From assembly GCA_002793855.1 (NCBI GenBank), contig PFET01000009.1, positions 21,749-85,748 on the forward strand: a stretch of DNA of 64,000 bases, in the 5' to 3' direction. Numbering within the stretch: the first letter of the stretch is position 1; each line of letters starts with the position of its first letter. Made by a program: the position numbers and the translations under genes. Positions 3,740 to 38,110 of this stretch are shown here, piece by piece. Source of the DNA: Candidatus Uhrbacteria bacterium CG10_big_fil_rev_8_21_14_0_10_48_11 (GTDB taxonomy: Bacteria > Patescibacteriota > Patescibacteriia > GWA2-46-9). The notes under the pieces are model-generated. The model did not search any database. It saw nothing but the letters and a program-made list of their open reading frames with translations, and was not told the DNA's origin.

Positions 3740-3746
3740 AAAACCA

Positions 3747-4964
3747 TTAAGGCAAAAACATCTTAGGGTCAACGACAATGCCATTATCGTGTACCTCGAA
3801 GTGCAAATGCGGACCAGTACTGTATGGGCCGGTGCCTGGCTTACCTGGTGTTGCGCCAGAAAGAGCAATGACCTGACCTTGAGTAACAAAGGTGTCTACG
3901 GAAACGAATACCTTAGATACGTGACCGTACACGGTTGTTAGACCACCGTCGTTAACCAACACAACATACCAGTAGTTACTAGGGTTACCGGTTCTGACTT
4001 TCGCCACGTAACCAGAAGCGGCCGCCAGTATTGGCGTACCCTGAGCTGCCCGGATATCAATAGCGTCGTGGGTAAATAAGTAGTTAAAAGGATAGTCGGG
4101 ATCGTGAAATCTAGTGGTAATTTTATTTTTTGGTACTGGCCAAATAAGGCGAGGGGCAGGGCCATTCGTTTCTATGCCATGCGAGCGAAGCTTGTCACGT
4201 ACCGTTTGCTCTAAAGCAGCAACCGCTCTCGTTGCCTGTTCTTGCTGATCTTTAACTTGTTGCAACAGATCTGCAAACTTCTGCTCTGATGATTTCGTCT
4301 GCTTTAAAAGATAACTTTTTAAAGACTGCTGGTCTGATAAATCTAGCGACTGTTGGTGCAAATCGTCAGCAGCTGAAATAAGTTCGCCTCTCTTGTTTTC
4401 AACAAGCTGTTTTTCTTCAGCAAGGGCCTCCTGCTCTGCCTTTACTTGCACAATGAGATTGTCCATTCTGTTTTGGAGGGTATGCAAATTCTGCAACCGC
4501 CCATAAAAACTAAAAAAATTCTCTGTTGTAAAAAGTGCCTGCAATGGTGAGCGACTTTTTTCCCGAACGATATAGCGCAATAATGCTCCAAGGTCCCCTC
4601 GATACGTTTTAACTTTCTGCTCCCCATCCTTAATCTGGTTTTCGACGCTGTTTATTTCCAAATTAACCTTTTCAATGTTCAGCTGCGCGGCTTCTATGCC
4701 TACTTGTGTTTTGGAAATCTCGTCGCTCAATATACCCATCTGGTTAGCAAGCGTCCTTGTTTCGCTCTGCTTTTGCTTAAGACTTTTTTGATACTCAGCG
4801 GCCGTATCTTCTAGTTTTTTTATTTCTTCTTGCTTCGCGTTAATTTGCTGTTGCAGCGCATTAACTTCGGGGCTGTCAGCCGCTTTTGCCGTAGCGTTTA
4901 CTGTAGACACTAAGGTGCCAAGTAAAATAAATAACGTCGTGATGAAAAAAACTTTTCTACTCAT
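3747..4964 (-). CDS. Secreted M23 (LytM-family) peptidase with an N-terminal coiled coil, EnvC-like.
   Basis: It has a signal peptide MSRKVFFITTLFILLGTLVSTVNA and about 230 aa of heptad-rich Q/E/K/L sequence. The C-terminus has M23 motifs HDAIDI...GTPILAAASGYV...YGH...GPHLHFEV. Confidence 0.75.
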   Translation of the reverse strand: MSRKVFFITTLFILLGTLVSTVNATAKAADSPEVNALQQQINAKQEEIKKLEDTAAEYQKSLKQKQSETRTLANQMGILSDEISKTQVGIEAAQLNIEKVNLEINSVENQIKDGEQKVKTYRGDLGALLRYIVREKSRSPLQALFTTENFFSFYGRLQNLHTLQNRMDNLIVQVKAEQEALAEEKQLVENKRGELISAADDLHQQSLDLSDQQSLKSYLLKQTKSSEQKFADLLQQVKDQQEQATRAVAALEQTVRDKLRSHGIETNGPAPRLIWPVPKNKITTRFHDPDYPFNYLFTHDAIDIRAAQGTPILAAASGYVAKVRTGNPSNYWYVVLVNDGGLTTVYGHVSKVFVSVDTFVTQGQVIALSGATPGKPGTGPYSTGPHLHFEVHDNGIVVDPKMFLP

Positions 4965-6471
4965 GCTGCGAACTTAATTTTTGAGAAGCTAAAGTAATTC
5001 TGTTAATAGTTTCTTGTTTTCCTACAACAGAAGCTAAAGAAAAAGGGCTCGGACTAACCGCCTCACCAGAAAGCGCAACTCTGAGTGGCCATAGGGTCTC
5101 CCCTACCCCAAGCTTCTTATCTGTAATAAATTGCCGTAATATTTTCTCTAGCATCTCTTCGGTGTAGTCACTTTCCGCAATTGTCTGCATATACTCTTCT
5201 AACATTTTGAGTGTTTCTATGGTATTGACTGCTGTAGACTTTTTGGCAATGAGTAGTTCTCCGGCATAGTCATCTTTTGGTTCCAGGTAGGTTGTAATAG
5301 CCGCACCTGTCTCATCAAGCTGTTGTAATCTATTCTGAACTGCCAATAACGACTTTTCGAGTAGCCCGTTAGAAATTTTCTTCCCGCTAACGGGAAGAAC
5401 CATTTCTCTGTTTCCTTTGGCTACCATAGATTGTAGCACGAAGGGCAGTGCTAATTGAATAAATCTTTGTGGCGGCAATGCCTTAATATACTGGCCATTC
5501 ATCCATCTCAATTTTTCCTCATTAAATATTGCTCCGGCAGCGTGTACATCCTCGAGTCTAAACTCTTCGCTTATCTGCTGTCTTGTTAGCATTTCTTTTT
5601 CGCCTTTAGGGTGCCAACCGAGCAGTGCGAGAAAATTGATCATTGCTTCTGGCAAAAATCCTCTATCGCGAAACGAAAGCGCGCTTAAATCGCCGTGACG
5701 TTTGCTCAATTTTGAACGATCTGTACCAAGAATTAATGGCACATGAGCAAAGACCGGTGGCTGCCAGTCAAAAGCTTTGTAGAGTGCCAAGTGTTTTGGT
5801 GTTGAAGAAATCCATTCTTCACCACGAATGACCGTGGTAATTTCCATAAGGTGATCGTCGATGACTACCGCCAAGTGGTAGGTCGGCCAACCGTCACTTT
5901 TGACGAGAACCTGATCATCTATAAGCGCATTAGAAAACGAAATCTCGCCTCTGATTTTATCGGCAAAGGTACTCTCGCCCTCTGTGGGCATTTTAAGGCG
6001 GAGGACGTAGGGTTCGGTGTTCATCTTTTTTTTGGCTTCCGCCAACGGTAGTGAACGGCAGTAACGATCATACCCTGTTGGCTTTTTATCGCGCTGCTGA
6101 CCCTCTCGCATTTCCTGCAGCCGCTCTGCGGTACAGAAGCAAGGATAGAGAGTCCCCTTCTCTTTTAGCTCTTCGATGTACGGCTTATAGATAGCAAGTC
6201 GCTCAGACTGTCGATATGGACCAAAAGCACCACCAATATCTGGGCCCTCGTCGTGGGTTATACCATACCAGTTAAGTGCCTCAAAAATAGCCTTTTCTGA
6301 TTCTGGTACAAAACGATTACGGTCAGTGTCTTCAATTCTCACAATCAATTCGCCTCTGGTGCTCTTAACATGCAGCCACTGCAAGAGCGCTATCCAAATG
6401 CTACCAATGTGTGGCATCCCTGTTGGAGAAGGCGCAAATCGCGTTCGTTCTTTTTGGTTACTTGTTGACAT
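4957..6471 (-). CDS. gltX: Glutamate--tRNA ligase.
   Basis: HIGH motif PTGMPHIGS and KMSKS-type LSKRHG. The RFAPSPTG start is typical of class I GluRS. Confidence 0.9.
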   Translation of the reverse strand: MSTSNQKERTRFAPSPTGMPHIGSIWIALLQWLHVKSTRGELIVRIEDTDRNRFVPESEKAIFEALNWYGITHDEGPDIGGAFGPYRQSERLAIYKPYIEELKEKGTLYPCFCTAERLQEMREGQQRDKKPTGYDRYCRSLPLAEAKKKMNTEPYVLRLKMPTEGESTFADKIRGEISFSNALIDDQVLVKSDGWPTYHLAVVIDDHLMEITTVIRGEEWISSTPKHLALYKAFDWQPPVFAHVPLILGTDRSKLSKRHGDLSALSFRDRGFLPEAMINFLALLGWHPKGEKEMLTRQQISEEFRLEDVHAAGAIFNEEKLRWMNGQYIKALPPQRFIQLALPFVLQSMVAKGNREMVLPVSGKKISNGLLEKSLLAVQNRLQQLDETGAAITTYLEPKDDYAGELLIAKKSTAVNTIETLKMLEEYMQTIAESDYTEEMLEKILRQFITDKKLGVGETLWPLRVALSGEAVSPSPFSLASVVGKQETINRITLASQKLSSQHE

Positions 6472-7687
6472 GAGATAGTTGATCTAAGGCGATATGAAGC
6501 ATAGCGTGACGTACTGGATTGACGACCGAATAGATATCTTTTTTTTCTACCCAGCGCCAGTCAACGTGTTCAAGCTGGTCCAGCGCAAAATCATTATCAT
6601 TTCCGACAAAGCGCAGATAAAAAATAGTTTGTTTCTGTCCGCGATAACCGTAGCGTCGATTGTTTACCGATAAAAGTTCGTTGTTTTGATAACGAGTCTT
6701 CCAGCTATAACGATACACGTTTTTTCGAGTTCTGCCTAAAACTTCGAACTTATCCGTACCGAGTTCCTCGTAAAGTTCTCTTTGTATGGCAAGACTGAGC
6801 CTTTCTCCCGGCTCTACACCCCCTTGCGGTAATTGCCAATGTCCTGGCTGATCTTTACGCTCTACAACTAGTACTTTACCTTGTTTATTCATTATAAAAC
6901 CGACAACACTAGTACGGTAACGGAGGCTCACTGAAAACATCCACCTCATTACAAGCAAAGGAAAACCAATAATAGCCCTTCTGATTCTATTTATCCGCCA
7001 CGGTTCACGCAACAACCGCCACAACCACTCTACCCCGAAACGGCGCATTAGTTTTGGCGCGCGTCTGACCCTCCCAGCCAAAATATCTAAACTACCACCA
7101 ACACCAATTGCCACCTTAACGCTTGGACAGTCTTTTAGAAAAGTATGCATCCACTTCTCCTGCTGACCGTGACCAAGAGCAACAATAAGCACGGTGGGTT
7201 TTGTCTTTTGTATGCGCTCTATAACGGCTTCGTGCTCATGGTCGTTCAGTACAGAAAACGAATTCTGATACTGATACGTTCCAAGTGGCGGAGCAAACGC
7301 ACCAGCAACTGTAGCATGAAATTTTTTCTTAGCTATCTCCGTCGCCTTCGTTAACACGCTGGATGTTGCCCCTAGAAAAAAAAAGCTATGTTGTTTTGGC
7401 AGATCGGTTAAAAGTGTTACTAAAAAATCAATTCCCGTTACTCGTTTTAGTCGAAGTCCATAAACGGCCCTGCAGGCAAGAACAAGACCTATGCCGTCTG
7501 GAAGTGCCATAACTGCCTCATTTAATGCCCTGCGAAATTCAGCGTCAGCGTGAGCAAGTACTACCATCTCAGGGTTAGGCGTTACCACATAGCGTTGCTC
7601 GGTCTCGTTGCACCAACGCGCAACAGAAGCGCTCGCGGCTTCTAGCGAAATATCATCGAGCACTATCCGGAAACAACTATGGCGCAT
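6458..7687 (-). CDS. Fusion protein. The N-terminal domain is a WecB/TagA/CpsF-family glycosyltransferase and the C-terminal domain is a NUDIX hydrolase.
   Basis: The N-terminal about 240 aa end in GVEWLWRLLREPWRINR, the characteristic C-terminus of the WecB/TagA/CpsF family. The C-terminal about 150 aa contain a perfect Nudix box GGVEPGERLSLAIQRELYEELG. The start is taken at MRHSCFRIV (Met 38 of the ORF-track protein), which gives an 11-nt overlap with the upstream gene. Confidence 0.65.
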   Translation of the reverse strand: MRHSCFRIVLDDISLEAASASVARWCNETEQRYVVTPNPEMVVLAHADAEFRRALNEAVMALPDGIGLVLACRAVYGLRLKRVTGIDFLVTLLTDLPKQHSFFFLGATSSVLTKATEIAKKKFHATVAGAFAPPLGTYQYQNSFSVLNDHEHEAVIERIQKTKPTVLIVALGHGQQEKWMHTFLKDCPSVKVAIGVGGSLDILAGRVRRAPKLMRRFGVEWLWRLLREPWRINRIRRAIIGFPLLVMRWMFSVSLRYRTSVVGFIMNKQGKVLVVERKDQPGHWQLPQGGVEPGERLSLAIQRELYEELGTDKFEVLGRTRKNVYRYSWKTRYQNNELLSVNNRRYGYRGQKQTIFYLRFVGNDNDFALDQLEHVDWRWVEKKDIYSVVNPVRHAMLHIALDQLSHVNK

Positions 7688-8243
7688 AACGCAGAGGTAC
7701 CTCCTTGCAAACCGTATACCTAAGCCCTTCGGACCCAAGGTCGCTGCGGTAAAGATTAACTTTTGTTGCCTGCCACGTGGGTGGCGCCAAGTTGGCATCT
7801 TGTGAAATTTTTGATTCTGAAATGCTTTGCTGTTCTTTTAACCTTCCTACTGTAACGTGAGGAATCCATGTTTTACTGTCATAGCCAAAATGGGCATTGT
7901 TGAGTTCATTCTTAAGCAAGGTATGCAGTTTTCTAAAAGCACCGCTTACGTCATTTACTCCGCAAGTAACCACTCGGGCATTGACAGCGCTTGGAAAACA
8001 CACTAGCGAACCTAGAGCTAATGCAAAATTATCAGCTTCTGAGCCAACGGTAGCGGTTATCCTGCAGAGGGTAGCAAGTCCCTCATCGCTTACTGCCGGA
8101 AAGAAAAAAAGAGTACTATGAATATGCTCCCTTCCCACAATTCGAAATTGAGGGTTACTTTGTAAAAGTTGACGACCAACTGTCTGAATATACTCCTTAA
8201 CCGCATCTGGCACGGATATTGCTATAAAGTATCTAGATGGCAT
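7677..8243 (-). CDS. 2H phosphoesterase (ThpR/LigT-like RNA 2',3'-cyclic phosphodiesterase).
   Basis: Two H-x-T/S-x motifs sit in the expected spacing: HIHSTLFF and HVTVGRL. The start is taken at MPSRYFIAI. Confidence 0.6.
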   Translation of the reverse strand: MPSRYFIAISVPDAVKEYIQTVGRQLLQSNPQFRIVGREHIHSTLFFFPAVSDEGLATLCRITATVGSEADNFALALGSLVCFPSAVNARVVTCGVNDVSGAFRKLHTLLKNELNNAHFGYDSKTWIPHVTVGRLKEQQSISESKISQDANLAPPTWQATKVNLYRSDLGSEGLRYTVCKEVPLRYAP

Positions 8244-23144: not shown

Positions 23145-23972
23145 TTACTCTTTAGTAGCTTTCTTTACGTTCTTTTTCTCCAATGCCTCCTCCTTTTCTG
23201 AAGTTTCTTCGCTGACCGTTTCGCTAACTTCCTGCACCTCTTCTTCTGTATCAGTATCAGCTACCAGCGTTTCAACCTCCATTTCGTTCACCTTACCAAC
23301 AGCGGCAAATTGAGCAACTAGAACTTTCGTGGCGTCCTTTACCGCCTCTTCTGGCGTCAACGTTGCATCCGTCTCAATGTTCATAAGCAATCGGTCGTAG
23401 TTGATCATCTGTCCTACTCGTGCGCTCTCTACAATAAAAGAAACTCTGCGTACTGGGGAGAAGAAAGAATCTACGGCAATCGTACCAATTTCTCTACCAG
23501 CCGCATCGCCTGTTTCTGTCATTTGATATCCTCGCCCCTTGGCTACCCAAATATCCATTTCAATTGCAGCATCTTTAGCCGTAAGCGTAGCAATGGTTAA
23601 TTCCGGATTAACAATTTCTACGTCGCTATTTTTATCAATATCTTTTGCCGTCACTGCTTTTTCTCCCTTGGCAGCTAGATGCAACTTAATTGGTTCATCG
23701 CTAAAAACTCGCATACGTAGCTCTTTGAGGTTCATTATAATTTGCAGCATATCTTCTGCAACTTTTGGTAACGCCGCAAATTCATGCGGCGCACCGGCAA
23801 TTTTCACGGCCGTAACTGCTGCACCCGGCAGTGACGAAAGCAGCACCCTGCGCAAGGCGTTGCCAACCGTCGTACCATACCCAGGATAAAGCGGCTCTAC
23901 TATTAAACGACCGCCTGTGCTTGTTTCGCCGGCTTCAAAAGTAACAACTGAAGGAAGGTTGATGTCCAACAT
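23145..23972 (-). CDS. rpoA: DNA-directed RNA polymerase alpha subunit. It has the N-terminal domain plus an acidic tail, and no alpha-CTD.
   Basis: The NTD is conserved (TTVGNALRRVLLSSLPGAAVTAVKIAGAPHEF). The last about 45 aa are acidic and low-complexity (EEEVQEVSETVSEETSEKEEALEKK). There is no helix-hairpin-helix CTD. Confidence 0.9.
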   Translation of the reverse strand: MLDINLPSVVTFEAGETSTGGRLIVEPLYPGYGTTVGNALRRVLLSSLPGAAVTAVKIAGAPHEFAALPKVAEDMLQIIMNLKELRMRVFSDEPIKLHLAAKGEKAVTAKDIDKNSDVEIVNPELTIATLTAKDAAIEMDIWVAKGRGYQMTETGDAAGREIGTIAVDSFFSPVRRVSFIVESARVGQMINYDRLLMNIETDATLTPEEAVKDATKVLVAQFAAVGKVNEMEVETLVADTDTEEEVQEVSETVSEETSEKEEALEKKNVKKATKE

Positions 23973-26009: not shown

Positions 26010-26669
26010 CTAAAGAATGTCAAGGGTAAAATTGAATGATTCTGAGCGGTATGGCAACCATGGCCAAAAGGATGGCCAAACTGAAATCTTTACATCGGTA
26101 ATGCCGCGCAGAAGCATCAATTTTTGAACTAATACTATTGGTTTTTTTGCGGCCACCATTTTAGCCATGCTGCCAAAATCATAGACGGGTATTGCCAGCC
26201 CCGAGACGGAAGTATTCATCCGCAAAACGTCACCACTATCTGCTACTGCCTTGGTAACGCGTACCTCTATGCTTGCTTTGTCTAAGACGGTATTGGTGGC
26301 TAACAATCTCTTAAGTTCATCATTCTCAAGATTCAATAAATCGTCCTTTTTAAAGGCAACCCCAGTGGTGAGAAGAGGATCTGAAACCACAAAGTGATCT
26401 TGGGCGTCATCAGTCCTTACCAGAAGGGGGAAAATTTGATCGTTTGGTTGCACCTCTACTTGCTCAGCAGGAATGGTAGCGAGCGCAGGTAGAGAATGGT
26501 CAATACTGGGATCCAAAACTACGTTCATAGTTGTTCTGGCGGGTTCTCCGCTTACGCTCACAGTAACGCTTGCTTTTGGAATAAAAAAAACAAACAATAC
26601 ACAACTAAGCAGTACTATTGAACCTCCAATAAACCACCAAGCAACGCGATGCCAACGCACAAACAACAT
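26010..26669 (-). CDS. Membrane-anchored hypothetical protein.
   Basis: One N-terminal TM helix is followed by about 190 aa with no motif I recognise. Confidence 0.4.
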   Translation of the reverse strand: MLFVRWHRVAWWFIGGSIVLLSCVLFVFFIPKASVTVSVSGEPARTTMNVVLDPSIDHSLPALATIPAEQVEVQPNDQIFPLLVRTDDAQDHFVVSDPLLTTGVAFKKDDLLNLENDELKRLLATNTVLDKASIEVRVTKAVADSGDVLRMNTSVSGLAIPVYDFGSMAKMVAAKKPIVLVQKLMLLRGITDVKISVWPSFWPWLPYRSESFNFTLDIL

Positions 26670-26681
26670 TGTAAAACTAAA

Positions 26682-28607
26682 CTACGATACCGTAGCTCTA
26701 ATTCTACGAATTCCTCGCGAAACCGCTTCCTCTTTCTTAATCTTTACCTTCCCCACTTGCGCTGTGTGCGCCACATGAGGACCGCCACATACTTCTTTAC
26801 TAAAATCGCCAACTGTGTACACCTTCACTTTTTCTCCGTAACGATCTTCAAACAACCCCAAAGCGCCGAGTTTCTCCGCCTCGGCAAAGGTCATTTCTTT
26901 CCATGAAACAGGCAAATCAGCTTCAACGGCACCGTTTACTTCACGTTCTATTGCTTCGAGCTGCTCTGACGTTACTTTTTCATTGTGCGAAAAATCAAAT
27001 CGAAGTCTATCGCGAGTTATGTTTGAGCCTTTTTGGAATACGTGCTTACCAAGTACTCTACGAAGTGACTCGTGCAAAAGGTGAGTAGCAGTATGCAAAC
27101 GAGTGCATTCCCATGAATCGTCAGCAAGTCCGCCATGAAATTTTTTTATCTCCCCGCCTTTAGAGAGTAGCTGATGCTGCTCGAATTCTTGCTTAAACTC
27201 TTCAAGTATTTTCTCTCTGTCAAAAAAATTTTCGGCATTTTCAAGCCCTAATTCCGGTAAAATAACACGTTCTACTTCTTCTAAACTTAACTCTACTGGA
27301 AAACCATAGGTCGCATACATTGTAAACAAATCACGACCAGTTAACCGCTTTCCTGCAGTTAAAATAGTGTCGTTCACAATTTTACGCAGCTCCCGCTCAC
27401 CTCGAACCAAAGTCTGGCGAAACTTTTGTTCTTCCGCGCCGATAGCTTCAGCTATTAGCTGCTGGCGCTTAACCAAGTACGGATAAACTTCTTCATACGC
27501 TTGCACAACCGGCCTTACCAATCGATGTAAGGTGTTAGGCTCCATTGCCAACATGTCCGCGTGTCGCACCACGCGCCGCAAGAGACGTCGAACCACATAT
27601 CCTTGCTCTTTATTGGACGGTTCCGCACCATCGCCTATCAAAAAAACGCTTGCGCGAATATGATCGGCAATTACCCGAAAGGACCACTTGAGCGCAGGGG
27701 CACAGTTAGCGTAAGATTGCCCCGATAGCTGTTCTATCTGTTGAACAGTGAAGTGCAAACCTTCAACGGTCGAAAACACATCGGGATTATTGTTAGCAGC
27801 CGCGGTCAATCGTTCTAGCCCACCTCCAAAATCGACATTTCTTTGCGGAAGCGGATCAAACCCGGTTTTTGTTCTTTGGTATTCCATAAAAACCGAATTG
27901 CCAATCTCCATAAAACGGCCACAGTCGCAATTTGGATGACAAAACGCTCCATAGGCAGGATCGTGTTTGATTTCAGTAAATTCGTAAAAGATTTCACTAT
28001 CAGGTCCTCCGGGTTCACCCTCTGGCATTTTGTCAGGCAACCCAACTCTGCTCCACCAATTTTTTGACGCATCGTAATAAAAAATTCTTCCCCCTTTCAT
28101 GCCATTGCGAGAACCTTCCTCAATGGAACCAATAACGACATCTTTCGCGTCGATTCCTTTTTCTTTAAAAAGGCTTTTCCATAGAGCAACAGACTCGTCG
28201 TCTCGCGGAATACTATTTTCTTCACTGCCGGAAAACACAGTAACATAGAGATGCTTCGGATCTATGCCAAGCTTCTCTGTCAAAAAAACAAAGCACCATG
28301 GAAGTTGTTCAGCTTTAAAATAGTCTCCAAGTGACCAGTTGCCGAGCATTTCAAAAAAAGTGGTGTGACGATTGTCCCCCACCTCCTCCATATCTTCCGC
28401 GCGAAAACATTTTTGCGAATCAGCCAACCGCTTCCCTTCCGGATGCTGCTCTCCAAGAAGATACGGTATTAACACCTGCATTCCCGAACCGGTAAATAGT
28501 GTGGTAGGGTCGTTGTCTGGGATGAGTAACCCAGAAGCAATAACTCGATGCTCCAAATCAGCAAAATAGGAAAGATATTTTTTTCTGATTTCGTTTGCTG
28601 TCATAGT
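26682..28607 (-). CDS. alaS: Alanine--tRNA ligase, short form that ends after the editing domain, with no C-Ala domain.
   Basis: The class II core is present: FTGSGMQ...RHTTFFEMLGNWSLGDYFK. Editing-domain motifs HTATHLLH and CGGPHV are present. It is 641 aa from MTANEIRKKY. Confidence 0.85.
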   Translation of the reverse strand, partial: TMTANEIRKKYLSYFADLEHRVIASGLLIPDNDPTTLFTGSGMQVLIPYLLGEQHPEGKRLADSQKCFRAEDMEEVGDNRHTTFFEMLGNWSLGDYFKAEQLPWCFVFLTEKLGIDPKHLYVTVFSGSEENSIPRDDESVALWKSLFKEKGIDAKDVVIGSIEEGSRNGMKGGRIFYYDASKNWWSRVGLPDKMPEGEPGGPDSEIFYEFTEIKHDPAYGAFCHPNCDCGRFMEIGNSVFMEYQRTKTGFDPLPQRNVDFGGGLERLTAAANNNPDVFSTVEGLHFTVQQIEQLSGQSYANCAPALKWSFRVIADHIRASVFLIGDGAEPSNKEQGYVVRRLLRRVVRHADMLAMEPNTLHRLVRPVVQAYEEVYPYLVKRQQLIAEAIGAEEQKFRQTLVRGERELRKIVNDTILTAGKRLTGRDLFTMYATYGFPVELSLEEVERVILPELGLENAENFFDREKILEEFKQEFEQHQLLSKGGEIKKFHGGLADDSWECTRLHTATHLLHESLRRVLGKHVFQKGSNITRDRLRFDFSHNEKVTSEQLEAIEREVNGAVEADLPVSWKEMTFAEAEKLGALGLFEDRYGEKVKVYTVGDFSKEVCGGPHVAHTAQVGKVKIKKEEAVSRGIRRIRATVS

Positions 28608-28657
28608 ATTGCTAGTATATTGACAATTCTTTACCCTGACAAGATGGGTAAAAAACA

Positions 28658-29374
28658 TTGTATACTAAAAGCATGCCAGAACGAATTAATAAATTTATAG
28701 CGGCTCGAAGTCAATGGTCGCGCCGACAAGCAGACGAATTGATTGCTCGAGGTTTAGTAACCGTAAATGGAACGCCTGTAACCCCTGGTGCGACTGTCAC
28801 TGATGCCGATACGGTTACGGTCAATGGGATGACCATTTCTGCCCCGGCTGCGTTGCTCTATCTCATGCTTAATAAACCAATCGGCTATATTACCACGACT
28901 GATCGACGTATGTCCGACAATGTACTCGATCTTGTCCCTTCGACCCAAAGACTTTTTCCTGTTGGGCGTCTCGATGTGTTGTCCTCTGGATTACTACTAC
29001 TGACTAATGACGGCGAGCTCACGAACCGACTAACCCATCCTCGCTTTGAGCACGAAAAGGAGTATGTGGTTGAGGTCGATAAAACACTTACTGAGGACAA
29101 ACTTGATGTACTGCGACACGGTATTCGTTTACGCGATAAACTAACTTTACCAGCTAAAGTACGGCGACTTACCGACCGCGGATTCAGTATCGCTATCAGA
29201 GAGGGTAAAAATAGACAAATTAGAAGGATGTGTGAGTATGTTGGATATAACGTAATAAATCTACGCAGAACCAGAGTGCTTTCACTCTCTCTGGGCAACC
29301 TAACGGTTGGCCGCTGGCGCTATCTGTCCGCTGAAGAGATAACACACCTTCGCCGCGACACAGGACTGCTTTAG
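28658..29374 (+). CDS. RsuA/RluB-family rRNA pseudouridine synthase with an S4 domain.
   Basis: S4 motif INKFIAARSQWSRRQADELIARGLVTVNG and catalytic GRLDVLSSGLLLLTNDGEL. A later start at MPERINKF (28673) is possible. Confidence 0.75.
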   Translation: MYTKSMPERINKFIAARSQWSRRQADELIARGLVTVNGTPVTPGATVTDADTVTVNGMTISAPAALLYLMLNKPIGYITTTDRRMSDNVLDLVPSTQRLFPVGRLDVLSSGLLLLTNDGELTNRLTHPRFEHEKEYVVEVDKTLTEDKLDVLRHGIRLRDKLTLPAKVRRLTDRGFSIAIREGKNRQIRRMCEYVGYNVINLRRTRVLSLSLGNLTVGRWRYLSAEEITHLRRDTGLL

Positions 29375-30735: not shown

Positions 30736-32550
30736 CTAACTTAACGTAATCGTTTGGCCTGGTTGCACGATACTTCCCTTTGAGGTATTTTGTTCATTTG
30801 TTTCTCTTGCACTTTTCAGATGCTCATCGCCTTGCTTTTTTTCTACAAATGGTTCAGCTTCTTTTTGTTTAACCTCATCGTCACTTTTATTTTCTATTGC
30901 AACTACGTTATTGATCACCAGAGGTATTTTCTCTTTTACGACGGCTGGTTTACTTGCTGGAACCGCACCCTGTCTGCCTTTCGCTCGCTCACTGCGTATG
31001 CGACTGAGGCACTCTTTGCAGTAAACAGGGCGTTTTCCATCTGGCTTAAAAGACAGCTTAGTAGGCTTACCGCACTCATTACAAACCGCATCATAGCTTA
31101 ACACGTTCTTTACTGGTTCGCTGGCTAATAACTGTTTCGCCTCAGACTGAGTTGCCGTCTTTGGCACTGCTGTTTTGTGGCTAGTAACAACTTGCGCACT
31201 TCTAGATCGTTCTGTTCTCGGAGGCGCGGAACTGGCAGCTTTGTGCAAATCTACGGCTTCTTGTTCGAGGGTACTTGCCCAGCGCGAAATCTTGTCTTCG
31301 ATAATTTCTCGCTCTTTTGCGTACCGCTCTCTAGACACACGAATAACTTTTTCACGATTACCGTAATTATTCGCTACCGGCTTAAGCGTATTTGCGGAAA
31401 ATGGCGTTGAGGCAACGCCATCAATCATTAACTTAAGGTAAATCTGCCACTTTGCTAGGTTAACCAAATCTTCTTCAGTGAAATAAGGGCTAAACTCTTT
31501 AACCAACAACTCCGCGTCAGTAGCGCCTACACGAAAGCATACAATCGTACCAACGTTACCAAAAACGGCAGCCTGCACTTCCTCGTCTAACTGTTCGACG
31601 TACTGATGTGCGATAATAAGGTTGAGGCGGTACTTACGGGCCTCTGACAAAATATTTGCAAACGACTCGGTGGCAAAGTTTTGAAATTCGTCGACATAAA
31701 GATAAAAATCTTTTCGCTCTTCTTCTGGCGTATCAATACGACCCATAGCTGCCAATTGAATTTGCGTAATCATCATTGCTCCCAGTAGAGCAGAAGTATC
31801 TTCTCCAATTCTTCCTTTTGATAAATTCAAAATAAGAATTTTTTGATTATCCATGATGTCACGAATATCAATAGAAGACTTTACCTGTCCCACAACATTG
31901 CGAATGAGAGCATTGGACAAAAACTGCCCAACTTTATTCTGAATTGGCGCAATAGCTTCCGCCTGAAAACGATCTGGATACTTTGAATATTCGTCTACCC
32001 AAAAACTTCTCACGACTGGATCCTGAATTTTTTCAATGACGCGTTTACGGTACGCTTTGTCCGTCAAAATGCGCAGTACACCAAGTAATGTTGATCCTGG
32101 ATAATCGAGTAAGGCGAGAATGGCATTCCGAAGCACGTACTCAAGTCGCGGTCCCCAAGAATCTGCCCAAATCTTTTTAAACACACCTACCAGTCCAGAA
32201 GCGATAAGATGCCGCACTTCGGGATTAACAGATTCTAAAATATTAAAAGCGATGGGAAAATTTAAATCTGCGGGGTTGAAATACACCACGTCATTTACCC
32301 TATTTGAAGGTATGAGCGGTAGTGTAGCTTCGGCCAGCTCACCGTGCGGATCAATAACCGCAATGCCGTTACCCGCCATAATGTCTGAATACACCATCTG
32401 CTTCAAAAGTTCAGACTTGCCCATACCGGTTTTACCGATAATGTACATGTGGCGACGCCGATCATCCCGTCGAATACCAAAAAGGCGGCACTTATCTCGG
32501 TAGTTCGTTTCAGCAAAAAAAGTTATATCTTGGTTGTTTGTGTTTAGCAT
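30736..32550 (-). CDS. Soluble P-loop ATPase related to the TraG/VirD4/TraD coupling-protein family. It has no N-terminal TM segment and carries a C-terminal Zn ribbon.
   Basis: Walker A IIGKTGMGKS is followed by VIDPHGEL. Walker B and the family signature read YLYVDEFQNFATES...ARKYRLNLIIAHQYVEQLDEEVQAAVFGNVGTIVCFRVGATDAELLVKEFS (compare the TraG-D_C pattern DEFxNL...Q...QL...N.gt.i.f). The C-terminal zinc ribbon is CNECGKPTKLSFKPDGKRPVYCKEC, followed by a Lys/Glu-rich tail. Confidence 0.6.
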   Translation of the reverse strand: MLNTNNQDITFFAETNYRDKCRLFGIRRDDRRRHMYIIGKTGMGKSELLKQMVYSDIMAGNGIAVIDPHGELAEATLPLIPSNRVNDVVYFNPADLNFPIAFNILESVNPEVRHLIASGLVGVFKKIWADSWGPRLEYVLRNAILALLDYPGSTLLGVLRILTDKAYRKRVIEKIQDPVVRSFWVDEYSKYPDRFQAEAIAPIQNKVGQFLSNALIRNVVGQVKSSIDIRDIMDNQKILILNLSKGRIGEDTSALLGAMMITQIQLAAMGRIDTPEEERKDFYLYVDEFQNFATESFANILSEARKYRLNLIIAHQYVEQLDEEVQAAVFGNVGTIVCFRVGATDAELLVKEFSPYFTEEDLVNLAKWQIYLKLMIDGVASTPFSANTLKPVANNYGNREKVIRVSRERYAKEREIIEDKISRWASTLEQEAVDLHKAASSAPPRTERSRSAQVVTSHKTAVPKTATQSEAKQLLASEPVKNVLSYDAVCNECGKPTKLSFKPDGKRPVYCKECLSRIRSERAKGRQGAVPASKPAVVKEKIPLVINNVVAIENKSDDEVKQKEAEPFVEKKQGDEHLKSARETNEQNTSKGSIVQPGQTITLS

Positions 32551-32556
32551 AACCTT

Positions 32557-33981
32557 CTAAGCTGTCGGTAAATCTGCGGGTGGTTTTGGATTTACCTCTC
32601 CTTCCTGCCGCTTCGTCTCACTGGGGTAATTAGTGCCAATTTCGCTCGCGTAGGGCAAAGTAACTGGTGGGGAGGTGTGCTTAAAGTCCGTCTTTTGAAC
32701 TGCTGCTCTAATGGGGGTCGTTTCAGTCATCATTGGAAAATGCCAAAGTGTGGCCAACTCTTCGATATTCATAACATACGGTTCTCGGCCAAACTCAAAC
32801 TCACGCTCTTTGTATCGATGCATCAGTTTTCTGCGCTTCAAATTTTTTCGCCAATCGGTAAAAAAGTAGTTAGCATGAACGCCGACGTGTTTTGTGTCAG
32901 GCTTAAGAGAATTTAAGTTTTCGGTGTTAAATTGCTTAATGGCGCCAATGAACGCCTCACGTCCATGCTGTACATTAAACCGTTCTTTGGTGGCAATATA
33001 AACAAATCGAATTTTTGTTTCGTAGCCTATCTTTTTGACCTTCATTGACATCGCCTCAATACGATCCCTGTCGTAGGGCGAAAGTAGCAATAACCCGCCA
33101 AGTGAGCCTTTCTCCTGATGCCCCTCTTCGAGTACACCCGAACCACCACCAAATTGATTCGACGCGGACTGCCCAAACTTTTGAATTTCTCCTGCGATGC
33201 TAGACAGTAGCGAGCCCGTCTCCTTTGCGTGACCCATAGTATCCTTAATTTTATGAATCACTTCTTTCTTCCACGAGTTTGTTATAGGCAAAATAATAAT
33301 CTGTAGCCACAGCTGTTCACCCGGACCAAGTTTACCCATTGTTTCTATAACAGCGTTCATCGGGTCTTTCATCTCTTTACTCATTATGTGCTCAAACTCT
33401 ACGTAGGTACGAATAGGTAGCGCCTCATTCTCTACATAAACGACCTCTGTACCGTACATATCATAGCGCTCGTCGGGATACACCGTCGGATACCCCTCCA
33501 CATAATCTTCTACTTCAGTAATTTGAGCGTCTGGATACTGACTATACACCGCCGCTTCCACTAAGTCTCGGAACTTGTCAACCGTTCTAATCAAAAACTG
33601 AACGTATCCTTCAATACTTACAATTTCTAAAGAGAAGGACTCCTGCACGGCACCATACCAATATTTTTCCAGCATTGTTTTTGTGCCATGTGCACCAGCA
33701 AGATGAGCAAAAATATTTTCAACTGCTTTTGGTGATTGCACGTTATCTCGTGGCACATCTATCGCCAGAAGTACCCAATGACACTTTTGTCTTTGGTACT
33801 CTCTCTTAATGTAGCGCATCCAAAAAAACCATCCGAGCCGCACAAAAGCAATAACAAAAATAATCCACCCACCGTGAATCACCAAATAGAAAAAAAGTTC
33901 CCAGCTAGCAATGAGCGGAGAAGCGCCGTATATGGCTGCATGCAGTAACTCAGCAAAACGTGACGGTGTTGCAACGTCCAT
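32557..33981 (-). CDS. Membrane protein with 2 N-terminal TM helices and an uncharacterised soluble domain of about 400 aa.
   Basis: Hydrophobic helices LIASWELFFYLVIHGGWIIFVIAFV and WFFW lie near the N-terminus. The rest has no motif I recognise. It is wedged between the regulator and the ATPase with gaps of 3 nt and 6 nt. Confidence 0.45.
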   Translation of the reverse strand: MDVATPSRFAELLHAAIYGASPLIASWELFFYLVIHGGWIIFVIAFVRLGWFFWMRYIKREYQRQKCHWVLLAIDVPRDNVQSPKAVENIFAHLAGAHGTKTMLEKYWYGAVQESFSLEIVSIEGYVQFLIRTVDKFRDLVEAAVYSQYPDAQITEVEDYVEGYPTVYPDERYDMYGTEVVYVENEALPIRTYVEFEHIMSKEMKDPMNAVIETMGKLGPGEQLWLQIIILPITNSWKKEVIHKIKDTMGHAKETGSLLSSIAGEIQKFGQSASNQFGGGSGVLEEGHQEKGSLGGLLLLSPYDRDRIEAMSMKVKKIGYETKIRFVYIATKERFNVQHGREAFIGAIKQFNTENLNSLKPDTKHVGVHANYFFTDWRKNLKRRKLMHRYKEREFEFGREPYVMNIEELATLWHFPMMTETTPIRAAVQKTDFKHTSPPVTLPYASEIGTNYPSETKRQEGEVNPKPPADLPTA

Positions 33982-33984
33982 AGA

Positions 33985-35199
33985 TTAGGCTTGCTGAACA
34001 AGATGGTAATTACCTTCTTTGTCTTTCGTAAACATTGTAGAATTGAGAAGCGCCAAATGAATTGTCTGTTTCTTTACCATTCGTCGTTCAAGTACGGCGC
34101 GTACTATCTGCTCTCGCTTCATACTGCCCTCTTTTTGAAGCAACTCACGAACAACATCAACTACGGTACCTGGCTGGTATCCCCACTCTCTAAGCGCGTA
34201 AAGCCCACGGCCAACAAGAACAAACCGTTTGTCTAAAATGAGTTCGTTATGAACCGATGGCGCCTTGGCAACTTTCGAATCAAAATGCATCGAATTAATT
34301 TTTTCGGTAATCACATTAAAATGTAAGGGCTTTCCGTGATGCCGAAGAATTAAATAAATTTTATCATTCATTCGTCGCGGATGAATGGTTTGCCAAGAAC
34401 GCATCCCCCACTCTCCAAAAATATTCTGCGCAAGCTCACCAGCTGCTGATAAATAGGCGGTCAGGACGCGATTTTCTTCCTCGGTAGTTGGTGGGTCATT
34501 TGTACCCGGAGAGCCAATAAACTCTCTTGCAATATGTACTGGTTCAGCCACTAGTTGTTGACGGCGCTCAAGGTAAAAAGGTTGTTGCCGAAAGCGTTGT
34601 AGAAGATCGCCACGCTCTATCGGGTATCCTACCGTTTTTATTGCTTCCACAAACGATTCTACTGCTCCCTTTAGTAATGCTGTATCAACGCCAGTTAAAA
34701 CATAAATTGGGCGAAGACAAACATCGTCTTCCCGGTATTCAACAAAACCATCAAGTAAATGGTCGAGCAAAAAATGTAGGCAGGCTTTTGTCGAAGCTTC
34801 ATGTTTTTCGTCACCGATCCTTCCTTGCGAGTAATCCAGGAGCTGATCTATAAAAAAAACTGCCTCTAACGCGCCTCCGTAACTACGCAACAGGTATTCT
34901 GTTGTTCTGATGAACAACTTTAGCTCCTCGTTCTTTGCGGAGAGCGCCCGCAATTTGTCTACAGAAGATTTAGCAATTTGACGGATACGTTCTCTGGTAA
35001 CCGATAACTGATCTCCAATCTCTTCCAGCGTTTCTGTTTGACCCCCTTCTGGAATTGCAAATCTGCGACGAACAACATCGGCCTCGCGGTCCGCTAGGGT
35101 GCTAAGCAGATGATTCACTACCGCGACAGGGTCAAACGTACGTATTTCTTCTGCGTGTCGCTGGGCAATTAATTTATCTAAAATACTATACTCTGACAT
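33985..35199 (-). CDS. Putative DNA-binding or transcription protein. It has an N-terminal sigma-70 region-4 helix-turn-helix and a C-terminal HARE-HTH-like winged helix.
   Basis: Residues about 35-85 read LADREADVVRRRFAIPEGGQTETLEEIGDQLSVTRERIRQIAKSSVDKLR, matching sigma-70 region 4.2. Residues about 290-360 read IYLILRHHGKPLHFNVITEKI........ILDKRFVLVGRGLYALREWGY, matching the HARE-HTH pattern of RpoE/delta (Pm.f.ei...DgRF..lg.g.WgLr.W). Confidence 0.55.
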   Translation of the reverse strand: MSEYSILDKLIAQRHAEEIRTFDPVAVVNHLLSTLADREADVVRRRFAIPEGGQTETLEEIGDQLSVTRERIRQIAKSSVDKLRALSAKNEELKLFIRTTEYLLRSYGGALEAVFFIDQLLDYSQGRIGDEKHEASTKACLHFLLDHLLDGFVEYREDDVCLRPIYVLTGVDTALLKGAVESFVEAIKTVGYPIERGDLLQRFRQQPFYLERRQQLVAEPVHIAREFIGSPGTNDPPTTEEENRVLTAYLSAAGELAQNIFGEWGMRSWQTIHPRRMNDKIYLILRHHGKPLHFNVITEKINSMHFDSKVAKAPSVHNELILDKRFVLVGRGLYALREWGYQPGTVVDVVRELLQKEGSMKREQIVRAVLERRMVKKQTIHLALLNSTMFTKDKEGNYHLVQQA

Positions 35200-35266: not shown

Positions 35267-35302
35267 TAAAATTATAATAGCATAAAACGAATAATCTGTC
35301 AA
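35267..35302 (-). promoter_or_regulatory. Near-consensus sigma-70-type promoter for the operon beginning at 35199.
   Basis: The minus strand reads TTGACA (35302-35297), then a 17-nt spacer, then TATTAT (35279-35274). That is about 70 nt upstream of the ATG. Confidence 0.45.
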
Positions 35303-35354
35303 CGTCAAAGCGACGCAGTCTAGCTTCGCTTCCTACATCTCTAAACTTGTAAAA

Positions 35355-36305
35355 TTAGTAACGTGCGATTCGTCGCTTTTCTTTCCAGCTATACCAGCTA
35401 ATCAAAAGTGGCGAAGCTATAAAAATTGAACTGTAGGTACCAACGAAAATACCAATGGTAAGTGCTAGTACGAAATAGTGAATACTTTCTCCACCAAAGA
35501 CCAAAGTAAAAATAAGCACGAGCAATGTCGTAAACGAAGTGTTTATCGATCGACCCATTGTTTCGTTTAAGCTCCGGTTTACAACTCGGGAAAAAGAATC
35601 AGTGGCGCGATGCAAGTTCTCTCTAATACGATCAAATACAACAATGGTATCGTGAACCGAAAATCCAAGTAAGGTCAGTAGTGCAGTAATGAAAAGCACG
35701 TTTACTTCAACACCAAGGTAGTGTCCAAGAATAGAAAAAATACCAACCGTAATAATGGTGTCGTGAAAGAGAGCGATAATGGCCGCCGTTCCAAACTGCC
35801 ATGAGGGTACCGGACGAGAAACCTTTCTGAACGCCCAAGCGATATACAGAATGATTGCCCCCAAAACAGCACTCAATGCAAAAATTGATTTTTGTCGTAG
35901 CTCAGCTCCAATAGTAGGACCGATGGCGGTAAAACGCTCTTCGCTAATACTATCCCCTTTCTCTCCGCCAAATGTTTTCTCTAATGCTGCGAGTAAGGTC
36001 GCGTGATCCTCTTCGCTTAACGCCTTACCTTCTTTGGCGCCTATTCGCAGAGTTGCCCCATTGGTACCAATGGGAGTAATGTCTACGGTTCCAATAGTTT
36101 CTAGTACCGCCGCTGAAATGTCCGCTATCGCTGGACGATTACCAGCAAAGGTAATTTCCATTAACGATCCCCCAGTAAAATCAATACCGTATTTGAGTCC
36201 CCACCCTGGAAGTAAAATAGCCAGCGCGCACAGTAGCACCAAGGTACCCGAAAAGAGGTAGGCAATTCTGCGATAACCAACAATATTTATATTTGTACGT
36301 CTCAT
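35355..36305 (-). CDS. secF: Protein-export membrane protein SecF.
   Basis: It has six TM helices with a SecF periplasmic loop and a 4-nt overlap with secD. Confidence 0.85.
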   Translation of the reverse strand: MRRTNINIVGYRRIAYLFSGTLVLLCALAILLPGWGLKYGIDFTGGSLMEITFAGNRPAIADISAAVLETIGTVDITPIGTNGATLRIGAKEGKALSEEDHATLLAALEKTFGGEKGDSISEERFTAIGPTIGAELRQKSIFALSAVLGAIILYIAWAFRKVSRPVPSWQFGTAAIIALFHDTIITVGIFSILGHYLGVEVNVLFITALLTLLGFSVHDTIVVFDRIRENLHRATDSFSRVVNRSLNETMGRSINTSFTTLLVLIFTLVFGGESIHYFVLALTIGIFVGTYSSIFIASPLLISWYSWKEKRRIARY

Positions 36306-38110
36306 ACTTCGGTCGAATTATTTTTTCGCGCCACGCCATAAAGCCACAGTCGTTTACTTGTACCGTTAGCCACCACAAGCCTTAAGAATGTACGAGTAAC
36401 GATAATCGCGCTAAACATACTTACCAAAATACCAAGAGCGAGCGTCAACGCAAACCCACGAACAACGCTGGTTCCAAACCAGTAAAGAATCGTACAGGTA
36501 AGAAGCGAGGATACATTTGAATCGCGAATGGACGTCCAAGCACGCTGGAAACCAACTTCGATAGCTGATTGTAGCGGCCTTGCCTCAGCAAGCTCTTCCC
36601 TAAGGCGTTCAAAAATAAGCACGTTGGCGTCCACTGCCATACCAATAGAGAGAATAAACCCAGTTACTCCTGCAAGCGTCAACGTTACTGGCCAAAACTT
36701 GAAAAGCGCTAGGGCAATGCTGGCGTACACCAGCAAAGCAAACACCGACAAAAGACCCGGCAAGCGATAGTAAAGAATCATAAACAGTGCAACTAGAAGA
36801 AACCCGATAAACGCCGCTTCTAAACTCTGCTGAACTGCAACGGCGCCAAGCTTAGCCCCGATGGTTTGCTGCGAAACAAGTGCGATTGGTACTGGCAATG
36901 CACCGGCATTCAAACGCTGTGCTAACAGTTTTGCCTCGTCAATAGTGAAGCTTCCAGTAATAACCGCCTCGCCACCAACAATTGCCTGTTGGACTGTTGG
37001 GACACTAATCGGCTGACCATCAAGGAAAATACCAACCGGTTTACCAATATCACGCTGCGTAATTTCTTCAAAAAGTTTCGATCCTTCTGCGTTAAAGCGT
37101 AGCTGCACCTGCGGCTGGTTTGTCTGCTGGGCAAAAACGACCGTTGCTTTATCAAGCTGCTTACCTGATAACTGAGTGTTCTTCCAGCCAGCGTTTGGGT
37201 CATTTGGCAAAAAATCTCGGGCCGACGGAGCACTGATAAGAATATGACGAGCGTGAACCTCTTGAACCCCGTCGCTGTTGGTTCTCTCGTCAAGACGTTG
37301 TATCACATGATGCCCATAAGCGGTTTTGATAGGCGTTTGGGTAATCTGATTTTCTTTGAGTTGGTTAAAGAGTGCGTCACCGAATTCTGCCACAACGCTG
37401 GCTTTCGTGATGTAGTCAAGGTCACCGCCATTGTCTTTCGAGCCGGGATCATCAGAAAGCTCTTTCGCAATTTTTGCAAAATCTTCTCCGGCATTGAGGC
37501 GCTTAATAACCGATTCGGCTTTACGCTTGGCAGCCGCCTGTCCGTCATCAATCTGTTTTTGCTGGGCTGGCGTAATGGTCGGAGCTACCGCATTTTCATC
37601 CTGCTCTTTAAATTCTAGCAATGGCGTCTCACCGATCTGCTTAATGGCATCATCCACGTTCTCTACACCCGCAAGTTCAACCAATACGCGCCACTGGTTC
37701 CCAGAGCGTTCTGTTTGTACCACTGGCTCAGCAACACCAAAGGCGTTCACGCGCCGCTCAATGACGTCACGGACGCCCTCAAGCGCTGAGACCTTATCAC
37801 TGTCAGGAATTTTACTGGTATCCGCGTCATAAAGTAACTGCGTCCCGCCAACAAGATCAAGGCCGAGTCGAAACGGCGTATCGACAAAGTACGGAACGCC
37901 AGCCTTCAATACTCCCCCAACCCAACCCAAACCAGTCGGATACTGCTTAGCACCGAGTTCTGCTAATTTTGGATTTACCGCATCTACCGCCTTATTGTAA
38001 TAAACAGGATAGTTATAAAGTCCCGCAACAATAGTAAGCACGATGATTGCCACGAAGGTCCACCGAACTCGTCCTCGGCGGGTGCGGAAGGTAACGCGTA
38101 CGCCCATCAA
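36302..38110 (-). CDS. secD: Protein-export membrane protein SecD carrying a parvulin-like insertion in the periplasmic P1 region.
   Basis: The SecD N-terminal TM and P1 base (LGLDLVGG) are present, as are the head subdomain (IFLDGQPISVPTVQQAIVGGEAVITGSFTIDEAKLLAQRLNAGALP) and the C-terminal six TM helices. Residues about 175-300 are alignable to parvulin PPIase (see finding). Confidence 0.85.
   Translation of the reverse strand: MMGVRVTFRTRRGRVRWTFVAIIVLTIVAGLYNYPVYYNKAVDAVNPKLAELGAKQYPTGLGWVGGVLKAGVPYFVDTPFRLGLDLVGGTQLLYDADTSKIPDSDKVSALEGVRDVIERRVNAFGVAEPVVQTERSGNQWRVLVELAGVENVDDAIKQIGETPLLEFKEQDENAVAPTITPAQQKQIDDGQAAAKRKAESVIKRLNAGEDFAKIAKELSDDPGSKDNGGDLDYITKASVVAEFGDALFNQLKENQITQTPIKTAYGHHVIQRLDERTNSDGVQEVHARHILISAPSARDFLPNDPNAGWKNTQLSGKQLDKATVVFAQQTNQPQVQLRFNAEGSKLFEEITQRDIGKPVGIFLDGQPISVPTVQQAIVGGEAVITGSFTIDEAKLLAQRLNAGALPVPIALVSQQTIGAKLGAVAVQQSLEAAFIGFLLVALFMILYYRLPGLLSVFALLVYASIALALFKFWPVTLTLAGVTGFILSIGMAVDANVLIFERLREELAEARPLQSAIEVGFQRAWTSIRDSNVSSLLTCTILYWFGTSVVRGFALTLALGILVSMFSAIIVTRTFLRLVVANGTSKRLWLYGVARKNNSTEV

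Follow-up and report, generated by a model that had tools for sequence, protein, structure and literature searches.

What does a protein do that carries the −35-reading end of a sigma factor without the rest of one? The question is raised by a gene in a stretch of 64,000 nucleotides (nt) from Candidatus Uhrbacteria bacterium CG10_big_fil_rev_8_21_14_0_10_48_11 (contig PFET01000009.1, positions 21,749–85,748), referred to here as the window. The open reading frame (ORF) lies on the minus strand at 33985..35199, starts with ATG and encodes 404 amino acids (aa). A database record 100% identical to its product, COV04_02645, is listed as a hypothetical protein in a metagenome-assembled genome of Candidatus Uhrbacteria bacterium CG10_big_fil_rev_8_21_14_0_10. 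An initial annotation had proposed that a sigma-70 region 4 at the N-terminus is joined with a HARE-HTH-like domain at the C-terminus, and a Pfam search places both above their thresholds: Sigma70_r4 (PF04545) at residues 31–85 (E = 2.6e-14, 52.9 bits, cutoff 24.1) and HARE-HTH (PF05066) at residues 280–339 (E = 1e-10, 42.3 bits, cutoff 25.9). The motif quoted for the second domain, GKPLHF...ILDKRFVLVGRGLYALREWGY, is present in the translation. No other Pfam family matches the protein at E ≤ 1. Our tentative reading is that it is a Patescibacteria-specific transcription or DNA factor, distinct from sigma factors, that is predicted to bind −35 hexamers.

A genuine alternative sigma factor is the reading that existing names imply. 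PROKKA and JGI names for the family include 'RpoS' and 'specialized sigma subunit', and the region 4 match is strong. However, neither sigma region 2 (PF04542) nor region 3 was found by Pfam at E ≤ 1 or by NCBIfam, and the two agree with the initial annotation, which had region 4 standing without them. NCBIfam models for RpoD, RpoS, RpoH and extracytoplasmic function (ECF) sigma factors align by their last ~60–85 positions only, scoring 18–60 bits against cutoffs of 133–800. Furthermore, region 4 is N-terminal here, the reverse of the sigma order, and the rest of the protein models as winged helices. Since regions 1.2, 2 and 3 are missing, the protein cannot melt a −10 element or bind core RNA polymerase (RNAP) as a sigma factor does, and we consider a true sigma factor effectively excluded.

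A piece split off from a sigma factor was also rejected, because related genomes contain complete sigma factors. Two of these are separate genes whose products have the same VTRERIRQI recognition helix: one at 514–1362 of related locus L063, and SEML1_0063 of Southlakia epibionticum, which has regions 1.2, 2, 3 and 4 (PMC10633639). No adjacent gene supplies sigma region 2; the neighbours encode a DUF8128 membrane protein and an ATPase resembling type IV coupling proteins (T4CPs). The two-subunit sigma SigO(YvrI)/RsoA of Bacillus subtilis, phage T4 gp33 and MzaA of the MZA defence system are comparable in placing region-4 function on a separate polypeptide. SigO/RsoA differs in that no region-2-only partner gene is adjacent here, and MzaA matches the 404-aa protein through region 4 only (PADLOC). 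The class to which the initial annotation had assigned the protein, a non-sigma transcription or DNA-binding factor, fits these results, with binding itself predicted from sequence.

The N-terminal domain closely resembles that of group-1 sigma factors. It spans residues 23–90 (34930..35133, minus strand), with the recognition helix VTRERIRQI at residues 67–75. Profile matches in the PDB to SigA/RpoD region 4 reach E ~ 1e-17, and Foldseek aligns the domain with sigmaA region 4 (7kuf_B, 8cwr_B, 4g6d_A and 1ku7_A) at 49–54% identity and a root-mean-square deviation of 1.1–1.7 Å; 1ku7 is the complex with −35 DNA. In HMMER alignments, VTRERIRQI is identical in Bacillus subtilis and Staphylococcus aureus SigA, and the TLEE(I/V)G stretch preceding the recognition helix is also kept. 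The likeness to SigA/RpoD region 4.1–4.2 (1KU7, 7KUF, 4G6D) thus covers fold, ~50% sequence identity, recognition helix and DNA-contact residues, and the difference lies in the N-terminal position of region 4 and the missing regions 1.2, 2 and 3.

Seven residues of this domain (R46, T68, R69, E70, R71, R73 and Q74) do not vary among 29 homologs, nor in an alignment of 18 sequences that takes in Saccharimonadia members at ~30% identity. We equate them with E. coli sigma70 R562, T583, R584, E585, R586, R588 and Q589 (RpoD numbering); the equivalents of T572–G577 are invariant as well. In the structure of sigmaA region 4 bound to DNA, described by Campbell and colleagues in 2002, these residues are reported to touch the −35 element, with E585 and Q589 reportedly reading bases. 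Invariance of the E585 and Q589 equivalents points to DNA reading. The −35-reading residues are unchanged over the deepest split sampled (ABY1/Paceibacteria-type versus Saccharimonadia), and this constancy would be difficult to account for if the domain no longer read a TTGACA-like hexamer.

The family is large. Searching 1.84 billion cluster representatives with a profile returned 867 proteins at E ≤ 1e-30, mostly of 345–410 aa, each standing for a cluster at 50% identity, and the gene occurs in at least 542 GTDB species genomes. Among the homologs listed, full-length proteins are 36–70% identical and have the same two Pfam domains, and those with names all belong to Patescibacteria (Uhr-, Buchanan-, Kerfeld- and Nomurabacteria). 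A branch at 29% identity consists of Saccharimonadia, including Candidatus Nanogingivalis. Databases label homologs 'sigma factor-like helix-turn-helix DNA-binding protein', with HARE-HTH precomputed on nearly all of them. A literature search, which did not cover the original description of HARE-HTH, found no paper describing, naming or analysing the protein, in line with the initial annotation, which had not recognised the architecture as characterised. Neither domain is new, databases already include the family, and its essentiality is recorded in a supplementary table.

That table comes from a transposon sequencing (Tn-seq) study of S. epibionticum, a Saccharibacterial species (Wang et al. 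2023, PMC10633639, Tables S1 and S2). SEML1_0294 has 349 aa, PF04545 at 27–72, PF05066 at 225–283 and the PROKKA name 'RpoS', and its published domain parse reads 'tri-helical, winged, winged, winged' (PMC10633639). It is the apparent ortholog of the 404-aa protein, as judged by architecture, length and synteny with Saccharibacterial loci L082–L085. Insertions in this gene fell from 24 in the input DNA to 1, 1 and 2 after selection, and it was scored essential (ES) at three of three time points (PMC10633639). The adjacent SEML1_0293 (921 aa, with TrwB/TraG/HerA domains) went from 82 input insertions to 87, 120 and 110 and was scored non-essential (NE); both genes are flagged as core (1) and Patescibacteria-enriched (1), and neither is discussed in the main text (PMC10633639). 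Of 116 lineage-enriched genes in this species, the one member of the lineage open to genetics, 73 are essential, this family among them, and the roles of most are unknown (PMC10633639). With an essential apparent ortholog and a dispensable ATPase, the protein would also have to act beyond its own operon.

To see what accompanies the sigma-4 head, we examined an AlphaFold2 model of the 404-aa protein built from 29 homologs (predicted local distance difference test score, pLDDT, 89.2; predicted template modelling score, pTM, 0.79). It places a short N-terminal helix before the four-helix sigma region 4, followed by four winged-helix units (WH1–WH4), each with the order helix-strand-helix-helix-strand-strand, so that the whole protein models as five domains: sigma-4 and four winged helices. 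In the model itself sigma region 4 spans residues 24–87, WH1 91–170, WH2 174–268, WH3 277–338 and WH4 346–400. The N-terminal segment (residues 1–22, 35134..35199; this and the features below are on the minus strand) has a SILDK motif and a helix at 6–20. I6 and L7 are invariant in the 29 homologs, which are of the ABY1/Paceibacteria type, and the motif is missing from Saccharimonadia homologs in the alignment. WH1 (residues 91–172, 34684..34929) and WH2 (residues 173–270, 34390..34683) are acidic and variable, and the alignment shows a subfamily insert in WH2. These two occupy the region between the recognised domains, which the initial annotation had taken for a central helical domain of about 200 aa; the region is there, but it models as two acidic winged helices. 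The HARE-HTH is WH3 (residues 271–342, 34174..34389), as supported by Pfam and, just under its cutoff, by TIGR04567. It is followed by a further, basic winged helix, WH4 (residues 343–404, 33988..34173), which the initial annotation did not contain and in which R373, V375, T379, L382, L384 and Y398 are invariant in homolog alignments.

Charge and conservation divide these domains into two kinds. Across the 29 aligned homologs, mean net charge is +3.3 for sigma-4, +5.4 for HARE-HTH and +3.2 for WH4, with mean pairwise identities of 48%, 68% and 48%, HARE-HTH being the best-conserved part. The corresponding values are −3.6 and 26% for WH1 and −4.0 and 28% for WH2. In a Saccharibacterial homolog, the region corresponding to WH2 gives a sub-threshold WH_Rok match. 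Foldseek of the whole chain against the PDB returns the tandem winged-helix proteins UFL1/DDRGK1 (8b9x) and Dcc1 (5msn). A common origin of the four winged helices by internal duplication is not shown by hhalign, whose signals among them are weak (the best, WH2–WH4, at 65% probability).

The C-terminal half raises the possibility that the protein is an accessory subunit of RNAP, with sigma-4 seated on the beta-flap tip and HARE-HTH on beta-prime, as in the Firmicute delta subunit. It would then be a lineage-specific, essential general factor like delta, RbpA/CarD or T4 gp33, and might anchor polymerase at the membrane ATPase. RNAP-binding proteins are the source of both recognisable domains, and delta (RpoE) is a founding bacterial member of HARE-HTH (PF05066), sharing the pattern KP..F...I / F...L..D.RF......W.L..W with the 404-aa protein. 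The delta model TIGR04567 (RNAP_delt_lowGC) scores 41.0 bits, just under its equivalog cutoff of 42 (NCBIfam). The best PDB match of the HARE region, by profile and by single sequence, is S. aureus RNAP delta, but it is not significant (E 0.19–0.36). Profile alignments to RpoS begin as early as residue 4 and run into the 3.2/4.1 linker. The positions equivalent to sigma70 L551, F563, I565, I590, L595, L598 and L607 are conserved, as flap binding would predict; however, these hydrophobic residues also belong to the core of the fold and do not discriminate. The 68% identity of HARE-HTH is what a conserved protein partner would lead one to expect, and essentiality suits a core role in transcription.

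Several features fit this arrangement poorly. Flap binding does not call for the invariant base-contacting residues equivalent to E585 and Q589, and a flap-bound sigma-4 would shut sigmaA region 4 out of the holoenzyme. Delta has an acidic, disordered C-terminal tail, whereas here that tail is absent and HARE-HTH is followed by the folded, basic WH4 in a protein of five domains. Delta is dispensable in Bacillus, in contrast to the essentiality of this family in the one species tested. RbpA and CarD, like this family, are confined to one large lineage, are essential there and have DNA- or RNAP-binding modules; they show no homology to it, and RNAP binding is only hypothetical here. Overall, we regard an accessory RNAP subunit as possible but doubtful.

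The RNAP of this organism has been tentatively linked to the protein in another way. RpoA in the window (23145–23972, minus strand) has 275 aa, with N-terminal dimerisation and insert domains, lacks the alpha C-terminal domain (alpha-CTD) and ends in an acidic low-complexity tail, ...TDTEEEVQEVSETVSEETSEKEEALEKKNVKKATKE, with the L17 gene directly after it. The initial annotation had noted the missing alpha-CTD, correctly, and speculated that accessory RNAP-contacting factors might be unusual as a result. Compensation for alpha-CTD loss was rejected, since S. epibionticum RpoA keeps a CTD (PF03118, residues 240–304) in a genome that also has SEML1_0294. The same observation shows that alpha-CTD loss is not general in the candidate phyla radiation (CPR).

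If the sigma-4 head reads −35 hexamers, its clearest predicted target is close by. The operon promoter (35274..35308, minus strand) has the form TTGACA-17-TATTAT, TG-extended and running from 35302 to 35274; it agrees with the consensus at 11 of 12 positions and is the best site in the ~5 kb between 30400 and 35500. Nowhere else in the window does an intergenic region contain a perfect TTGACA whose −10 is correctly spaced. An overlapping second hexamer, TTGACG, precedes TTGACA, giving two −35-type hexamers, TTGACGTTGACA, at 35297–35308 on the minus strand. Of 71 related loci, 68 have TTGAC-N17-20-TAnnnT upstream of the gene, compared to 41 of 272 (15%) among other genes preceded by a gap of 80 nt or more. 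The hexamer-aligned consensus is TTGACA-N14-T.TGcTATAaT, with no other conserved block. Within 60 nt upstream, extra TTGAC and GTCAA copies number 17 and 13, where 4.3 and 3.6 are expected (~4-fold). This enrichment is suggestive only. In Saccharibacteria two distinct loci are available, and one of them has a perfect TTGACA-17-TATAAT.

The mechanism that we tentatively favour would work as follows. The sigma-4 head would read TTGACA-type hexamers through the same residues as sigmaA, the basic and conserved HARE-HTH and WH4 would grip RNAP or the DNA nearby, and the acidic, fast-evolving WH1 and WH2 would act as spacers or offer a docking surface for other proteins. Seated on −35 elements, the protein may compete with, or hand over to, the sigmaA holoenzyme. 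At its own promoter, where the operator would be the −35 element itself, this predicts autoregulation, which would extend to the co-transcribed genes for the DUF8128 protein and the VirD4-like ATPase. Beyond the operon, it may act genome-wide as a general promoter- or nucleoid-associated factor.

A narrower interpretation of the promoter data is a dedicated repressor that occludes the −35 element of its own operon and is essential only because the unrestrained membrane ATPase is toxic. The gene heads a tight operon, with a gap of 3 bp to the gene for a 474-aa membrane protein and then 6 bp to that for a 604-aa ATPase, and transfer-type operons are commonly headed by regulator genes. The near-invariant −35 hexamer, the extra hexamers close by and a gene order kept across classes are all consistent with such a repressor. 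However, a five-domain protein of 350–400 aa, with 68% identity in its HARE-HTH, is far more elaborate and constrained than typical operon repressors. In addition, one partner is missing beside the gene in a few lineages and both are missing in locus L072, and the toxicity of the ATPase is presumed. A role limited to repressing this operon therefore seems improbable to us.

The partner genes bear on a third possibility, that the protein is the DNA-recognition adaptor of a translocase. Partner 1 (474 aa; 32557..33981, minus strand) is a membrane protein without a match in the local Pfam or NCBIfam sets and without a PDB sequence match; DUF8128 (PF26449) is precomputed on a database protein identical to it. 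Its model (pLDDT 78.7) finds the N-terminal part of TrwK/VirB4 of R388 as the best Foldseek hit (E = 5e-5, probability 1.0), suggesting a fold like the VirB4 N-terminal domain. Partner 2 (604 aa; 30736..32550, minus strand) is a VirD4/TrwB-like ATPase that resembles T4CPs. Pfam models above cutoff are TrwB_AAD_bind, DUF87 (HerA) and TraG-D_C; zf_Tbcl_2, a treble-clef zinc finger, also matches, and the protein has a C-terminal CxxC-x17-CxxC zinc ribbon. NCBIfam returns VirD4-like CD1115 and TIGR04272, with VirD4-like models far under cutoff, and the only PDB profile matches are the coupling proteins TrwB and DotL. There is also a match to the TraM-recognition region. The membrane anchor for the ATPase appears to be supplied by the DUF8128 protein, either as a separate chain or, in Saccharibacteria, fused to it.

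Linkage to these partners was counted in 80 related loci and, for both partners together, in 65 related loci with at least 3.4 kb of downstream sequence. The initial annotation mentioned neither this pairing nor the published essentiality, which are the most informative facts about the gene. The DUF8128 gene adjoins the target gene in 72 of the 80, and the ATPase is present in 71 (57–76% identity). Both are adjacent and on the same strand in 57 of 65 loci, and at least one partner is found in 64 of 65. In a few loci the ATPase gene directly follows the target gene with no membrane protein between. DUF8128 and ATPase genes are separate in the window and in most ABY1/Paceibacteria-type loci examined, while in Saccharimonadia the target gene lies directly upstream of a single gene for a 902–918-aa DUF8128–TrwB-like ATPase fusion (L082, 8198–10954; L084, 8122–10830). 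The Saccharimonadia flank also differs, with topA upstream in place of the secDF found elsewhere. As the linkage is kept despite these different flanks, it is to the ATPase machine itself and is old.

As an adaptor, the protein would use TTGACA sites to load the adjacent VirB4/VirD4-like motor, which would then transfer, take up or segregate DNA, by analogy with the relaxosome accessory proteins TraM, TrwA and TcpK or the winged helix of FtsK gamma. The counts given above speak for this, as do the persistence of the pairing in Saccharimonadia, with other flanks and a fused partner, the TraM-recognition-region match of the ATPase and the fold of the membrane protein. A survey of 2,918 Patescibacteria genomes found 5,713 VirD4-like coupling-protein homologs, only 148 of them near virB4, which makes most of them orphans (Quinonero-Coronel et al. 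2025, PMC12102498). Its authors left open whether these proteins were exapted for other functions and did not mention sigma (PMC12102498). The DUF8128/VirD4-like pair probably corresponds to this widespread Patescibacteria 'orphan T4CP'.

However, in S. epibionticum the ATPase is dispensable and the sigma-4/HARE protein essential, so a role as adaptor cannot be its sole function. TcpK is a winged-helix-turn-helix protein, and what this family shares with TraM, TrwA and TcpK is an HTH or winged-HTH protein encoded beside a VirD4/TrwB-like ATPase. Pfam reveals no homology to any of the three, and the setting here is chromosomal and housekeeping: a scan of 20 neighbours found no relaxase, oriT-like element or VirB genes. 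We consider an adaptor role unlikely, while noting that it, an accessory RNAP subunit and a dedicated repressor are not mutually exclusive.

Returning to the tentatively preferred −35-binding factor, we count in its support the identity of the sigma-4 domain, the invariant contact residues, the separate complete sigma factors, the charge pattern, the promoter and essentiality. Other considerations weigh against it. For all family members binding is predicted from sequence, and an abundant protein sharing the sigmaA hexamer should disturb transcription generally, unless affinity or context restricts it. High expression alone may account for the perfect promoter. Only 27 of 75 loci (about one third) have the extra hexamers, in part as tandem promoters and in phylogenetically related, hence non-independent, loci, and L082, the other of the two distinct Saccharibacterial loci, has no TTGAC −35 element. 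The HARE-HTH of RNAP delta binds polymerase, not DNA, so the C-terminal half of the 404-aa protein may not touch DNA. Finally, SEML1_0294 is taken as an ortholog on the grounds of architecture, length and synteny rather than of a sequence alignment. With these points set beside its support, a non-sigma protein with a housekeeping-type sigma-4 head and a winged-helix array containing HARE-HTH remains, as a −35-hexamer-binding factor, plausible short of a firm assignment.

If the sigma-4 head does read −35 elements, CPR cells would regulate or organise their promoters by a factor that other bacteria lack, and the ultra-small Patescibacteria make up a very large, poorly understood share of bacterial diversity. 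A broader proposal, to which we give an outside chance, is that the protein is an essential general transcription factor or extra RNAP subunit that, with a duplicate of the −35-reading domain of the housekeeping sigma and a delta-like HARE-HTH, couples promoters or polymerase, throughout the lineage, to a membrane-anchored VirB4/VirD4-type DNA translocase. Were it true, both the handling of promoters and the use found for CPR 'orphan' coupling proteins would be without counterpart in studied bacteria. The conserved pairing offers a first functional lead for thousands of orphan VirD4-like proteins, whose role the 2025 survey left open (PMC12102498). What lifts the family above the ordinary is that it spans the lineage, is apparently essential and can be tested in the Saccharibacterial genetic system (PMC10633639).

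The locus is not a mobile element or a defence island. Around it in the window lie genes of housekeeping function (secA, secDF, murB, mnmA, alaS, rpoA, ribosomal proteins) and polysaccharide genes. A defence system was considered and rejected: PADLOC returned only MzaA region 4 and, for the ATPase, mad8/HerA, and the housekeeping synteny argues against it. A viral or mobile origin was likewise rejected. There is a single IMG/VR match (L081), its neighbours include chromosomal-type topA, FtsK-like and RecT genes, and its topA synteny is that of Saccharibacterial chromosomes. BFVD returned no full-length analogue, and in these searches the full architecture has no viral counterpart.

Some observations concern the related loci rather than the family. 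In L081, a Saccharibacteria-type contig, the product of the gene at 2185–4371 (minus strand) is an FtsK/SpoIIIE ATPase that begins with a PD-(D/E)XK nuclease domain at its N-terminus; this gene lies beside the RecT gene. Many GTDB records with the CPR-type cassette (L003, L005, L006 and others) bear the title 'uncultured Gammaproteobacteria bacterium' (TPA assemblies), while that of the L073 cassette record reads 'Pirellulales bacterium'. Judging by the synteny with secDF, DUF8128 and the ATPase, these are probably mislabelled or misbinned Patescibacteria contigs. In Candidatus Nanogingivalis (L082, 826–6706; L083, 807–6706), an MmeI-type restriction-modification gene, a helicase gene and a T5orf172 gene lie between topA and the target gene; the MmeI gene of L083 is split into two ORFs.

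Other genes of the window also have unusual features. Two ORFs have no counterpart in the 80 related loci: one of 219 aa without a Pfam match (26010–26669, minus strand) and one of 238 aa on the opposite strand between alaS and mnmA (28658–29374, plus strand). Alanyl-tRNA synthetase (26682–28658, minus strand) is short, at 658 aa, with the catalytic and second additional domains and no match beyond them. SecD (36302–38110, minus strand) has a PpiC-type peptidyl-prolyl isomerase (rotamase) domain at residues 169–275, between SecD_1st and SecDF_P1_head. A 446-aa ORF at 6458–7798 (minus strand) fuses a WecG/TagA-type glycosyltransferase domain to a NUDIX hydrolase domain.

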